Source: Nanobdellota archaeon (lineage in GTDB: Archaea; Aenigmatarchaeota; Aenigmatarchaeia; QMZP01). From it: a DNA stretch of 64,000 nt. A model generated the notes under the pieces. It worked only from the letters and a program-made list of their open reading frames with translations. It was not told where the DNA came from and ran no database searches. The translations under genes and the position numbers were made by a program. The stretch lies in assembly GCA_043814765.1 (NCBI GenBank), contig JBDRJQ010000029.1, forward strand, positions 16,821 through 80,820. The letters run 5' to 3'. Positions 8,871 through 56,499 of the stretch are shown piece after piece (the stretch's first letter is position 1; each line of letters starts with the position of its first letter).

Positions 8871-9863
8871 TTAAAATAGATGCTCATTTATAATCTTTGC
8901 AGCGTCGCCTGGCTTGCAAATTATTGCTTCTTTGACGCCTGGAAGCTGTTCAAGGCGGGTTTTTAATTCATCCGCATCCTTGGCCATGCACATGACCTTT
9001 ACATTGGGTCCTGCATCCATTGTGAAGTAGGATTCCAGGTCCTCTTCTCTCCAATCCTGAATCGCATGTAGAATTGACATTGTGGCAGGATTCCAGTATA
9101 TGATAGGAGGTTTTGTTGTTATCATTGTTGCATGCATCTTCAGTGAGTTATGTTCGGCTGTCTGACCAACTGTGGTGAAATCTTTGCTCTTGATTGCTTT
9201 TCTCATTACATTTATGTCATCTCCGACAGTAGCAAGCCACTTGTCATAATACGGACATGTGGCGATTGTCTGTGCCATGCCTGCCCTGCTCTTGACTTTC
9301 TTTTCTTCTGTGCTAACAATTGTTGTAATCATTCTGAAGTCCCAGTAGTCTTTAGGGGCTATCTGTTCACCAAAGCTGTCTGTTCCATCTTCCTTTTCGC
9401 CGCGGTGCCATTCTACAAAACCGCCTTCTATTGAACGTGTCGCGGAGCCGGAGCCTCTTCTCGAAAGAATTGAAAGTTCCTTGTTGTCAAGATTCAAGCC
9501 AACGGCCTTTGAAGCAGCAAGGCTCAGTGCAGCAAAACCAGAAGCTGAAGAAGCCAGGCCAGCTGCTGTTGGAAAGTTGTTCTTGGAAACGACCTTTGCT
9601 TTTTCATTAATTCCGGCCATCTCTCTAACAATACCCAAATGATCAGAAACCTTTTTTATTTCGCTTTCATCAGTAACTTCTTGATCATTGATTACAACAA
9701 TATCTTTTTCATAATTTAGACTGAATTCAACAGTGGTTGTTGTATTTAATCCCTCCAAAGTCATCGAAATGCTACCATTTTGTGGGAGCATTAGTTTACT
9801 ATCACGCTTTCCCCAGTATTTGGTTAAAGCGATGTTAGCATTTGCAACTGCAGTCGCCTTCAT
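8871..9863 (-). CDS. mvaD: Diphosphomevalonate decarboxylase
   Basis: NIALTKYWGKRD, GLASSASGFAAL and SGSATRS are MDD-family motifs. It is co-directional with the MVK and PMK genes. Confidence 0.9.
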   Translation of the reverse strand: MKATAVANANIALTKYWGKRDSKLMLPQNGSISMTLEGLNTTTTVEFSLNYEKDIVVINDQEVTDESEIKKVSDHLGIVREMAGINEKAKVVSKNNFPTAAGLASSASGFAALSLAASKAVGLNLDNKELSILSRRGSGSATRSIEGGFVEWHRGEKEDGTDSFGEQIAPKDYWDFRMITTIVSTEEKKVKSRAGMAQTIATCPYYDKWLATVGDDINVMRKAIKSKDFTTVGQTAEHNSLKMHATMITTKPPIIYWNPATMSILHAIQDWREEDLESYFTMDAGPNVKVMCMAKDADELKTRLEQLPGVKEAIICKPGDAAKIINEHLF

Positions 9864-9917
9864 GAAATCACCTCTAAGTTGAATAATATAGATTTACAAG
9901 AAAGGTTTATAAATGAG

Positions 9918-10051
9918 TGGGAGCACAGGGAGTCGAACCCTGATCTACCGGTATCTCTCTGCCGAAGCACATACCAGATTCCAATCATCCTTGGAAAGTC
10001 ATCGCTCCAGTCAAACTGGAGCCGATAATGATGCCATTACACCATGCTCCC
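9918..10051 (-). tRNA. tRNA-Trp (CCA) with a 63-nt intron at the canonical 37/38 site
   Basis: Hand-folded. Acceptor GGGAGCA/TGCTCCC plus A73. Anticodon stem ATCGG/CCGGT with loop CTCCAG-intron-A. T-arm CAGGG-TTCGACT-CCCTG. The intron is about 9953-10015 and its ACTGGAG pairs with the anticodon loop. No CCA is encoded. Confidence 0.8.
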
Positions 10052-10095: not shown

Positions 10096-10251
10096 GCCTC
10101 GTTAGCTCAGTCGGTAATGTGGTTTTTCCAAAAACCGTGTCGGTAGAGAGCGCAGCGTTGGTAAGAAACCTTTTTCATAAAAGGTTTCATCCAAAAGGAG
10201 TTAACACGTCCAAAAACGCTGAGGTCCCGGGTTCAATTCCCGGACGAGGCT
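10096..10251 (+). tRNA. tRNA-Thr (GGU) with two introns (D-loop about 29 nt, anticodon loop about 52 nt)
   Basis: Acceptor GCCTCGT/ACGAGGC plus U73. The D-arm GCTC...GAGC is interrupted by a GGTTTTTCCAAAAACC hairpin flanked by a GTCGGTA direct repeat. Anticodon stem CAGCG/CGCTG with loop TTGGTA-intron-A. T-arm CCGGG-TTCAATT-CCCGG. The mature length would be 75 nt. Confidence 0.8.
10166..10211 (+). repeat. Copy A of the conserved hairpin + CCAAAAGGAG module (inside the tRNA-Thr anticodon-loop intron)
   Basis: Sequence AAACCTTTTTCATAAAAGGTTTCATCCAAAAGGAGTTAACACGTCC. Confidence 0.8.
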
Positions 10252-22576: not shown

Positions 22577-22609
22577 ACTTTTAGGAAAAAGTTTAGCTTC
22601 CAGAAAAAC
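22575..22609 (+). repeat. Copy F of the hairpin module, abutting the top6A stop codon
   Basis: In TAAACTTTTAGGAAAAAGTTT-AGCTTCCAGAAAAAC the stop TAA forms the 5' end of the hairpin. The last 13 nt are identical to the 3' end of the tRNA-Ser intron (56381-56393). Confidence 0.6.
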
Positions 22610-28491: not shown

Positions 28492-28755
28492 ATGTTGTTT
28501 AGCGGTGCAACCATGACAAAGAAGTGGACAAAGGAAGAGAGAAAGGAAAATACCAGATCAAAATTCTATAAGAGAAGAGAGAAGCTCTTGACTGTTTTTT
28601 TCATAGCAATAATCTTCATAGTGTTATTAGCTGCATTATCTTTTGCTATACAGATAACCAATTTTGCTCTGATAGCTCTGCTTGTTTTGCTGTTGATTGT
28701 TTTGGTGCCATTCTCTATTTTTGTAACGGATACAATCTTTTTTGAGACTGAGTAA
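28492..28755 (+). CDS. Small membrane protein (87 aa, 2 TM)
   Basis: A basic N-terminus is followed by two hydrophobic helices. Its stop TAA forms the 5' end of module copy B. Confidence 0.4.
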   Translation: MLFSGATMTKKWTKEERKENTRSKFYKRREKLLTVFFIAIIFIVLLAALSFAIQITNFALIALLVLLLIVLVPFSIFVTDTIFFETE

Positions 28756-28923
28756 ACCTTTTTCAGAAAAGGTCTTATCTCCAATATAATGGAGTAAGAG
28801 ATAATCTCTAACTCAATATGATAGGAGATTATATCTCATCTCAAATCTCAATGAATGAGGGATGGTCTCTGCGCTCATTATAATGTGAGACGCAGATTTA
28901 ATCCAAAAGGAGCTAACGCTTCC
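28754..28923 (+). ncRNA. Copy B: free-standing expanded version of the tRNA-intron module (candidate structured RNA)
   Basis: AAACCTTTTTCAGAAAAGGTCTT is followed by an insert of about 120 nt and then TTAATCCAAAAGGAGCTAACGCTTCC. The insert has several local hairpins (CTCCA/TGGAG, AGAGA/TCTCT, GAGAT/ATCTC, TCTGCG..CGCAGA). The 3' box matches the tRNA-Thr intron sequence AAAGGAGTTAACACGTCC. Confidence 0.4.
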
Positions 28924-32576: not shown

Positions 32577-32912
32577 ATGGCTGAAAAGAAGGTTAAAGCA
32601 GTGAAGAAGGAAGTTCCTAAAGAGGAACCTAAAAAAGTTAGTGCTGAAATTACCAATGAATGGGATGTTTTAATATATCCTCATCTAGCAGAAAAATCAA
32701 TGAACATGATAGAACTTGAAAATAAATTAATATTCGTAGTTAAACGCAACGCCAAGAAAAGCCAGATAAAAGAAGCTCTTGAAAAAGGATTTAACATAAA
32801 AGTACTGGAAATAAACACAGAAATAACAAAGAGTGGTGAAAAGAAAGCTTATGCTAAACTGCATCCTGACAGTTCGGCTATTGATATCGCTACCAGGATG
32901 GGAATGATATAA
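32577..32912 (+). CDS. rpl23: 50S ribosomal protein L23 (uL23)
   Basis: LIYPHLAEKSMNMIE..NKLIFVV......K.QIKEALEKGFNIKV is the uL23 pattern. It has a Lys-rich N-terminal extension. Confidence 0.9.
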   Translation: MAEKKVKAVKKEVPKEEPKKVSAEITNEWDVLIYPHLAEKSMNMIELENKLIFVVKRNAKKSQIKEALEKGFNIKVLEINTEITKSGEKKAYAKLHPDSSAIDIATRMGMI

Positions 32913-32940
32913 ACCTTTTGAAAAAAGGTTTAATCCAAAA
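32911..32940 (+). repeat. Copy C of the hairpin module between rpl23 and rpl2
   Basis: In TAAACCTTTTGAAAAAAGGTTTAATCCAAAA the rpl23 stop TAA is part of the hairpin. Confidence 0.6.
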
Positions 32941-32955
32941 CATTATGGTGATAAA

Positions 32956-51331: not shown

Positions 51332-51522
51332 GCGGGAGTTTCCGAGCGGCCAAAAATTGATGACTTGGATTGTATTCATCAAGTCATCTTTTGGCTATAG
51401 GAGCAGGGCTAAGGACCCTGTAGCTTAGTGCTTTCGCAGGTTCGAAATAAACCTTTTTCAGAAAAGGTTTAATCCAAAAGAAGGCTGAAGCCTTTCGCGG
51501 AACGAGAATCCTGCCTCCCGCA
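51332..51522 (+). tRNA. Type II tRNA, Leu-like (apparent anticodon AAG), with D-loop and T-loop introns
   Basis: Acceptor GCGGGAG/CTCCCGC plus A73. The D-stem TCC/GGA is interrupted by about 44 nt containing the GATGACTTG/CAAGTCATC hairpin. Anticodon arm CAGGG-CTAAGGA-CCCTG. Long variable arm TAGCTTAGTGCTTTC. The T-arm GCAGG-TTCGAA/T-CCTGC is interrupted by about 62 nt (51447-51508). Confidence 0.75.
51449..51494 (+). repeat. Copy D of the hairpin + CCAAAAG module (inside the tRNA-Leu T-loop intron)
   Basis: Sequence AAACCTTTTTCAGAAAAGGTTTAATCCAAAAGAAGGCTGAAGCCTT. Confidence 0.8.
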
Positions 51523-56298: not shown

Positions 56299-56499
56299 GC
56301 CGAGGTGGCGGAATGGTTAACGCGCACGACTGGAAGAAACTTTTTTGAAAAAGGTTTCATCAAAAAAGGAGGCTGACGCCTTCCAGAAAAACGGAAATCG
56401 TGTGTCCGAAAGGGCGTGCAGGTTCAAAGCAACCCTTTTCGGTGCGAGACAAACAAAAGGTCTGCACCCCAAAAGGAAGTGAAAATCCTGTCCTCGGCG
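56299..56499 (+). tRNA. tRNA-Ser (GGA) with anticodon-loop and T-loop introns
   Basis: Acceptor GCCGAGG/CCTCGGC plus G73. D-arm GCG-GAATGGTTAA-CGC. Anticodon stem CACGA/TCGTG with loop CTGGAA-intron(56336-56396)-A. Variable arm TGTCCGAAAGGGCGT. The T-arm GCAGG-TTCAAA/T-CCTGT is interrupted by about 57 nt (56429-56485). A T-run follows. Confidence 0.8.
56337..56386 (+). repeat. Copy E of the hairpin + AAAAGGAGG module (inside the tRNA-Ser anticodon-loop intron)
   Basis: Sequence AAACTTTTTTGAAAAAGGTTTCATCAAAAAAGGAGGCTGACGCCTTCCAG. Confidence 0.8.

Follow-up and report, generated by a model that had tools for sequence, protein, structure and literature searches.

A hairpin-and-tail repeat shared by tRNA introns and gene ends in an archaeal genome

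Overall features of the window

We have analysed a stretch of 64,000 nucleotides from a Nanobdellota archaeon (GenBank assembly GCA_043814765.1, contig JBDRJQ010000029.1, positions 16,821 to 80,820 of the forward strand; the window in what follows) and describe a short hairpin-and-tail element, here called the module, which recurs in the introns of its tRNA genes and behind several of its stop codons. The window has a G+C content of 37% and carries genes for FtsZ, topoisomerase VI, Nre, Rad50, aEF-1alpha and a ribosomal-protein cluster. The nearest relatives of its proteins are found in records labelled Nanoarchaeota or Aenigmatarchaeota and, judged by these sequences, the host is a DPANN archaeon and not a member of the Thermoproteales. 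The tRNA-Thr, tRNA-Leu and tRNA-Ser genes each contain two introns (Table 1). A preliminary description of this DNA had claimed that one module is shared by introns of these three tRNAs at two different intron positions. That claim is borne out, and all the intron strings quoted in its support are found where it had placed them. The finding stands on a solid statistical footing and is wider in scope than first described.

Structure and occurrence of the module

The module consists of a 10-bp A/U-rich hairpin (H1), with arms of the form N-AAAC(C)UUUU and AAAA(G)GUUU-N', and a single-stranded tail AUC(C)AAAA. A second helix (H2) of the form GGAG…CUUCC is often, but not always, present. The window holds seven copies, four in tRNA introns and three directly 3' of stop codons; four are intact and three degenerate, the latter being scored weakly or missed by the covariance model described below. 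The element is not peculiar to introns but is a member of a family of short structured repeats.

The core AAAAGGTTTMATCMAAAAG has four matches in the window at three mismatches or fewer, against 0.36 expected, and none of 100 dinucleotide shuffles reaches four. For the hairpin pattern there are six matches, against 0.02 expected. A covariance model of the kind proposed in the preliminary description was built from 18 equal-length copies. This model, R1, gives the four intact copies 42-52 bits (E values of 2e-8 to 2e-6) on the + strand, those in the introns of the three tRNAs lying at 42-50 bits, whereas the - strand gives only about 21 bits, which is the palindrome alone. In pairwise local alignments between the Thr 37/38, Leu 59/60 and Ser 37/38 introns, none of 500 shuffles was as good. 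Although the bodies of tRNA-Thr and tRNA-Leu are unrelated, their copies agree at 35 of 38 aligned bases. The similarity thus extends beyond AT-rich composition, shuffled sequences reaching neither the counts nor the alignments. Searched at its gathering threshold and, more loosely, at E ≤ 5, Rfam 15 gave tRNA matches alone and no family for the module; within the library searched, literature queries by motif string and by topic found no description of it.

In the Thr 37/38 intron, H1 (10165-10188) is followed by the tail ATCCAAAA (10189-10196), by GGAG (10197-10200) and by a second TCCAAAA (10209-10215). The Leu 59/60 intron has H1 at 51448-51471, the tail at 51472-51479, H2 (GAAGGC-UGAA-GCCUUU) at 51480-51495 and, near its end, CGAG (51503-51506) and the bulge AA. 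The Ser 37/38 intron begins with H1 (56336-56358, with one U.G pair) and continues with the tail ATCAAAAA, H2 (GGAGGC-UGAC-GCCUUC) and CAGAAAAAC. The T-loop intron of tRNA-Ser had been put forward as a more diverged member. This is plausible: R1 misses it, but it aligns significantly with the module if a 12-nt insertion in the H1 loop is allowed (p ≤ 0.004 against the Thr intron; none of 500 shuffles as good against the joined copy at 28753).

The sequence TCCAAAA stands immediately before and after the second helix in the window (10189-10215) and at three loci of the compared genomes, for which we use three-digit handles (L120, 6232-6285; L114, 6640-6670; L094). Since it stands on both sides, the second helix may have arisen by nested insertion into the tail, with duplication of 7 nt. 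All seven window copies lie on the + strand (at 10165, 22574, 28753, 32910, 51448, 56336 and 56429), co-oriented with the host tRNA or the upstream open reading frame (ORF). This uniformity might reflect a bias of insertion strand or replication, or simply a sense requirement.

The three copies outside tRNA genes differ in completeness. That between the genes for ribosomal proteins L23 and L2 comprises H1 and the tail. We considered this mRNA spacer copy as an intron with a bulge-helix-bulge (BHB) splicing motif and rejected the idea, since it lacks an outer helix and its removal by splicing would ruin the reading frames. The copy near the L3 gene is split, a 123-nt insert (28774-28896) parting H1 (28753-28773) from the tail and H2 (28897-28923). 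The insert contains many short hairpins and has no second copy in the window or the compared loci; nor were further copies of the other, non-module introns found there. In the truncated copy behind the TopoVI-A gene, the hairpin TAAACTTTT-AGG-AAAAAGTTTA is followed directly by GCTTCCAGAAAAAC, which recurs in the Ser intron as GCCTTCCAGAAAAAC. The module had been regarded as an intron core. It does occur in introns, but it also lies behind stop codons and, in other genomes, behind tRNA 3' ends and CRISPR (clustered regularly interspaced short palindromic repeat) arrays, and three of the window copies had been missed. The box within it that had been likened to a Shine-Dalgarno sequence precedes no ORF.

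Table 1. Module copies and their host tRNA genes in the window
Feature	Coordinates	Strand	Evidence
tRNA-Thr(GGU), two introns	10096..10251	+	Rfam tRNA 44.9 bits
Thr D-loop intron, sequence unlike the module	10116..10146	+	Missing from relative L111
Thr anticodon-loop intron 37/38	10164..10215	+	R1 42.5 bits
Truncated copy 3' of TopoVI-A stop codon	22574..22609	+	R1 19.7 bits, hairpin only
Split copy 3' of small ORF, convergent with L3 gene	28753..28923	+	Pattern match; orthologous sites of relatives
Copy (H1 + tail) between L23 stop codon and L2 start	32910..32942	+	R1 52.4 bits
tRNA-Leu, D-loop intron (about 51355-51398) and T-loop intron	51332..51522	+	Read by eye
Leu T-loop intron 59/60	51447..51508	+	R1 43.4 bits
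tRNA-Ser(GGA), anticodon-loop and T-loop introns	56299..56499	+	Cloverleaf read by eye
Ser anticodon-loop intron 37/38	56336..56396	+	R1 50.3 bits; boundary ambiguous by 1 nt
Ser T-loop intron 59/60, diverged copy	56429..56485	+	Alignment p ≤ 0.004; central helix UUCA/UGAA perfect

Predicted splicing geometry

The Thr 37/38, Leu 59/60 and Ser 37/38 introns place H1 in the same position. It starts immediately 3' of the 3-nt bulge containing the 5' splice site, one nucleotide past the predicted 5' cleavage site, and would form the outer helix h' of the predicted BHB motif. The order in all three is a stem (5), the central helix, a 3-nt bulge and the 10-bp H1, and the 3' side has a symmetric bulge of 3 nt. 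The final six intron bases provide the 3' strand of the central helix and two bulge bases, namely CCAA and AA in Thr, CGAG and AA in Leu, and (A)CGG and AA in Ser. The resulting central helices are UUGG/CCAA (4 bp), UUCG/CGAG (4 bp) and CUG/CGG (3 bp), respectively. Because H1 is a self-contained hairpin, the rest of the intron hangs off the junction and is free to vary.

Folds constrained to this geometry lie 0.3 kcal/mol from the minimum free energy (MFE) for Leu (-25.2 against -25.5 kcal/mol) and 1.7 kcal/mol from it for Thr (-21.3 against -23.0 kcal/mol); for Ser 37/38 the BHB fold is itself the MFE structure (-21.4 kcal/mol). A like geometry was recognized by eye in tRNA-Gly(CCC) of L041, tRNA-Arg(UCU) of L082 and tRNA-Ser(CGA) of L003, and in L082, whose intron is 38 nt long, GGAG of the module itself acts as a central-helix strand.

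Some details of the earlier assignment change. The pairing of CCAA with the Thr loop is confirmed, CCAA:UUGG being the 4-bp central helix. For Ser, CTTCCAG is indeed complementary to the anticodon loop, but it is module sequence out of BHB register and the register-compatible helix is CUG/CGG. The statement that only the 3' end of each intron is tRNA-specific is partly right. In Thr, however, the TCCAAAA that supplies the central-helix strand CCAA and the AA bulge is a second copy of the module tail, and in Ser the sequence CTTCCAGAAAAAC, taken as tRNA-specific, recurs in the non-tRNA copy at 22597-22609.

Several features of the tRNA genes themselves deserve mention. The 31-nt D-loop intron of tRNA-Thr has a hairpin GGTTTTT/AAAAACC and a 7-nt direct repeat, GTCGGTA, on its flanks (10110-10146). 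This repeat may be a footprint resembling a target-site duplication or may serve a GUCG/CGGU central helix. The anticodon stem-loop of tRNA-Leu, CAGGG-CTAAGGA-CCCTG (loop at about 51407-51413), gives the anticodon AAG with A at position 34; to our knowledge, A34 tRNAs are not normally found in Archaea. The 37/38 intron of tRNA-Trp(CCA), on the - strand at 9917-10051, carries C/D-box-like motifs (GCGATGA, GGATGATT) and is probably the known tRNA-Trp intron guide RNA. It is retained in the relative with the 83% identical neighbouring protein (L111, 8903-9031), unlike the Thr introns.

Plain ARAGORN, run with no intron mode, found no tRNA in the window, and the call of tRNA-Thr as Trp by ARAGORN -i is wrong, the D-loop intron having been swallowed. 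Brute-force intron removal followed by ARAGORN was applied to all copies and, the boundaries being ambiguous, serves as a guide only.

Comparison with relatives

Orthologous sites with and without the module could be compared directly. In the closest relative, L111 (GCA_018829405.1), where the neighbouring MVD protein is 83% identical, tRNA-Thr(GGU) is intronless: when 10116-10146 and 10164-10215 are taken out, the window exons equal the L111 ortholog (9869-9941) save for one acceptor-stem base, in a comparison that rests on one tRNA and one relative. tRNA-Thr and tRNA-Trp are rearranged in L111 relative to the window, and between them L111 has a 251-aa ORF (9050-9805) with a faint match to LAGLIDADG_3; the window is without such an ORF. 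For tRNA-Leu, synteny is not kept beside histidine-phosphatase homologs, and among the three module-bearing tRNAs the comparison of orthologs is thereby confined to tRNA-Thr.

Between L23 and L2 there are 15 nt in L120 (TTATGATGTGATATT; L2 80% identical) and 45 nt in the window. The flanks are the same in both, and the extra sequence in the window is exactly 30 nt (32913-32942), corresponding to H1 and the tail. The small-ORF/L3 spacer exists in three states: it is empty in L119 (L2 82% identical), holds an intact module in L120 (hairpin, CATCCAAAA, GGAGTTCATC…GATGAACTTCC) and has the module with the nested 123-nt insert in the window. With all filters off, R1 finds one clear copy in 87 kb from five relatives, compared with four intact and three degenerate copies in the 64 kb window.

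The pattern of sites appears to be that of an insertional repeat that has expanded in the lineage of the window, and gain rather than loss probably lies behind the polymorphism. The suggestion of intron mobility or duplication made at the outset is supported by the intronless Thr ortholog, the 30-nt indel, the three-state site and the difference in copy number.

Distribution in other archaea

One genome from each prokaryotic species was scanned with a pattern that did not require the 5' arm, and at least 110 loci matched. About half of the loci are archaeal among the matches listed, where 49 have a complete complementary 5' arm and 46 of these are archaeal. The carriers among these matches include Micrarchaeota, Aenigmatarchaeota, Pace-, Woese- and Nanoarchaeota, Diapherotrites and Thermoplasmata, together with ANME-1/Methanophagales, Methanosarcinales, Syntrophoarchaeum, Bathyarchaeia and Methanocaldococcus. 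Viral contigs gave no match to the module, and the long pattern was found at only five loci in Joint Genome Institute (JGI) metagenome contigs.

The tRNA contexts are introns in the D-loop, anticodon loop and T-loop and positions 1-2 nt behind tRNA 3' ends. Other DPANN genomes have module introns in Gly, Arg, Ser, Lys, Thr and Leu tRNAs. A single gene, tRNA-Lys(CUU) of L079 (1-110), has two copies, in its anticodon-loop and T-loop introns, and a tRNA of L099 (3885-3989) has one copy in a T-loop intron and another directly behind its 3' end.

Elsewhere the module lies behind stop codons or 3 nt past the last CRISPR repeat. The ANME-type copies are about 40 nt downstream of housekeeping genes and antisense to them, whereas the DPANN copies are sense. 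In genomes of ANME-1/Syntrophoarchaeum type (L074, 1-900; L046, L061, L075, L077, L084, L093, L102 and L109), the last CRISPR repeat (…GATTGAAAC ATC) is succeeded by an identical 31-mer, CAAACCTTTTAGAAAAAGGTTTAATCCAAAA; L074 has this 31-mer three times, with a period of 148 nt, accompanied by a degenerate repeat. In a second context, in ANME, Methanosarcinales and Bathyarchaeia, the same 31-mer stands between GGGAGGGTTGATAAG-like direct repeats on both sides (L004, L010, L011, L027, L030, L035, L043, L097, L100 and L110). SRP54 is the antisense neighbour in both L010 and L043. A reading of the ANME-type copies as right ends of IS200/IS605 elements was rejected, the convergent ORFs of 300-450 aa being SRP54, aminotransferase, glutamate kinase, Pol D and the like.

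The hairpin shows covariation. The model alignment of 69 distinct copies has 97% of its cells paired, and both partners have changed at six of the ten pairs. Because the copies were fitted to the structure, the first of these figures is inflated; the double changes are unaffected. The closing pair of H1 is G-C in 24 copies, U-A in 24, C-G in six and A-U in three. None of 500 shuffles reaches the observed pairing values, and sliding the partner collapses the pairing. Among non-Watson-Crick pairs only U.G on the module strand is common (13, against one other). The module accordingly folds as a single strand of its own sense, which fits RNA, or single-stranded DNA with G.T pairs.

Proposed mechanism and alternatives

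We consider it probable, with some reserve, that the module is an insertional repeat, mobile or duplicative, which supplies ready-made BHB introns. A copy landing in a tRNA loop would be tolerated, carrying as it does most of a BHB splice substrate. H1 would serve as h' beside the 5' bulge, and only some six nucleotides at the 3' end would have to pair with the four exon bases before the insertion site, leaving a 3-nt bulge. The splicing endonuclease, acting on H1, and a ligase would then remove the copy, so that the insertion would persist as a new anticodon-loop, T-loop or D-loop intron. Among the 30 window ORFs scanned, no gene for a splicing endonuclease or RtcB was found. Elsewhere, the only places where copies would last are the tiny spacers that follow stop codons and tRNA 3' ends.

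A number of observations weigh against this explanation. No transposase, reverse transcriptase or homing-endonuclease gene was found among the 30 scanned window ORFs. No clear target-site duplication or terminal inverted repeat was found at the module copies: their insertion boundaries are ambiguous by one or two A residues, and the hairpin is the sole inverted repeat. The hairpin and tail are near-identical across distant phyla, which argues for a selected function beyond selfish spread, and, from one related ANME-1-type genome to the next, the 31-mer keeps its place after the same housekeeping genes. Runs of T5-T6 in the 5' arm of H1 resemble archaeal termination signals, which would be awkward within a tRNA gene. 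Finally, the polarity of gain and loss rests on one or two relatives per site, and a precise intron loss in L111 would give the identical picture for tRNA-Thr.

The insertional explanation can be taken further. The module could be a pan-archaeal miniature element, or 'tRNA introner', that provides half of the BHB itself and spreads via RNA or a single-stranded DNA hairpin. By the RNA route, an excised or circular intron would be re-ligated into cleaved RNAs by the endonuclease and RtcB and then copied to DNA; the landing sites outside introns would be those after CRISPR arrays, stop codons and tRNA 3' ends. We offer this as a tentative possibility on which we would not rely.

The most serious competitor, though we think it unlikely, is a conserved functional RNA element, concerned with protein binding, 3'-end formation, processing or stability, which archaea would place after RNA units and which has been recruited into introns as a stable helix convenient there, so that its recurrence reflects selection and not mobility. 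This is close to the shared RNA-protein recognition element named as the second alternative in the preliminary description, with which the conservation of the tail across phyla agrees. Such an element would account for a hairpin and tail AUC(C)AAAA common to many archaeal phyla, from DPANN to Methanocaldococcus, for pairing that is specific to the sense strand, for copies that begin at or next to stop codons or just past tRNA 3' ends and the last CRISPR repeat, and for the place behind SRP54 and other genes that is kept between related ANME-1-type genomes. However, the nearest relatives lack the element at the orthologous gene ends and, because they do without it, it is not needed there. The ANME-type copies are antisense to the preceding gene and the DPANN copies sense, for which this explanation does not account, and there is no Rfam match. 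A role in termination is a particular case. Runs of T4-T6 do occur, but in the ascending arm; the copies stand behind stop codons, yet they also lie inside tRNA genes, where a terminator would be harmful, and are missing from the relatives' gene ends.

It is more doubtful still that these are old, vertically inherited introns, kept similar by gene conversion or by the constraint that the endonuclease places on their shape and lost from the relatives. That tRNA-Thr could be compared in one relative only leaves room for this explanation, as do the constraint of BHB geometry on the first helix and the stability of the C/D-type tRNA-Trp intron in both genomes. It leaves three things unexplained: why the identical module forms clean indels between protein genes, why a single-stranded tail for which the BHB has no use is conserved, and why the window and the relatives differ in copy number.

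Another view, which we regard as very improbable, is that AAAAGGTTTAATCC is a promoter of B recognition element (BRE)/TATA type, the T-rich hairpin a terminator and the 'introns' the junctions of split tRNA pieces joined in trans. The sequence AAAAGGTTTAATCC resembles the archaeal AAANNTTTATATA consensus, the 5' arm has its T4-T6 runs and a local hairpin such as H1 would let a BHB form between two transcripts as well. Nevertheless, by eye, transcription starting about 25 nt past the TATA-like box would, in Thr and Ser, begin at or beyond the strand of the central helix. The genuine tRNA promoters here are classical TTATATAA-type boxes, the spacing to downstream start codons is variable in the intergenic copies, and two of these face a convergent gene end. 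As a promoter for downstream genes in general, the module was rejected for want of a fixed spacing to them.

Chance similarity of low-complexity sequence, to which A/T runs flanked by CC/GG in a 37% G+C window might be prone, has a negligible probability and is excluded by the shuffling controls, to which the E values of R1 and the near absence of a complementary 5' arm among bacterial pattern matches may be added.

Comparison with known systems

Large-scale transposition of tRNA introns, with similar introns in different tRNAs and at different positions, has been inferred for the Thermoproteales (2010 work summarised in PMC4090602). The mechanism is given there as unknown and a DNA-level process is presumed (PMC4090602). 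The precedent, invoked in the preliminary description, holds for the kind of phenomenon but not for the host, which here is a DPANN archaeon and not a crenarchaeon. In both cases near-identical introns occupy unrelated tRNAs and different positions in one genome, the BHB makes splice sites transplantable and the gain would be recent relative to species divergence; presence and absence of an intron in the orthologous tRNA of a close relative is also common to both, although in our case for Thr in L111 only. Unlike the Thermoproteales introns, the shared core is a defined hairpin-tail module of 30-60 nt that occurs outside tRNA genes and in many phyla and forms clean indels in protein-gene spacers. 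Compared by description, the module case seems to be the same in kind as the Thermoproteales one and to extend it.

With canonical archaeal BHB introns, including the C/D-box intron of tRNA-Trp, the module introns share the predicted hBHBh' arrangement, the 3-nt bulges, a 4-bp central helix and the positions 37/38 and 59/60. In the canonical introns h' is made of both intron ends, whereas here it would be a self-contained 5'-terminal hairpin. The remainder of the module intron can take nested insertions because it hangs off a three-way junction.

Eukaryotic introner elements and spliceosomal introns derived from miniature inverted-repeat transposable elements (MITEs) are short non-autonomous repeats that carry or create the signals for their own removal from RNA. 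Such elements are reviewed in PMC11282704. As with introners, insertions of the module into genes would be retained as introns, and close relatives differ sharply in copy number. The differences are that splicing is predicted to depend on a protein endonuclease and ligase at a BHB instead of the spliceosome, that the hosts are tRNA genes, and that no target-site duplication, terminal inverted repeat or transposase has been identified for the module.

Repetitive extragenic palindromic (REP) sequences, bacterial interspersed mosaic elements (BIMEs) and palindrome-associated transposable elements (PATEs) are extragenic hairpins linked to HUH transposases of the IS200/IS605 type. Like REPs and PATEs, the module is a short, strand-specific, multi-copy hairpin with an adjacent conserved single-stranded motif, found at gene 3' ends, and like these and MITEs it forms a dispersed family with insertion polymorphism at orthologous sites. 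In contrast to them, no TnpA, RAYT or TnpB gene was seen: no Y1 HUH TnpA/RAYT occurs in the 30 window ORFs or adjoining the ANME-type copies, whose neighbours are housekeeping genes. Nor does the module have a conserved 5' target tetranucleotide, as far as its copies show. REPs are not known to be used as introns.

Implications

The way in which tRNA genes of archaea acquire introns is an unsolved question, as is the presence, in some lineages, of several introns per gene at odd positions. Here the moving unit can be delimited to a hairpin-tail module of 30-60 nt. The place of H1 as h' in the predicted BHB, the life of the module outside introns and the existence of empty and filled orthologous sites have been observed together, and the question of intron gain becomes testable. 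Conservation of the tail across phyla flags an uncatalogued archaeal RNA or DNA motif. If the more far-reaching proposal is true, the 'tRNA introner' would be the long-sought source of non-canonical and multiple archaeal tRNA introns.

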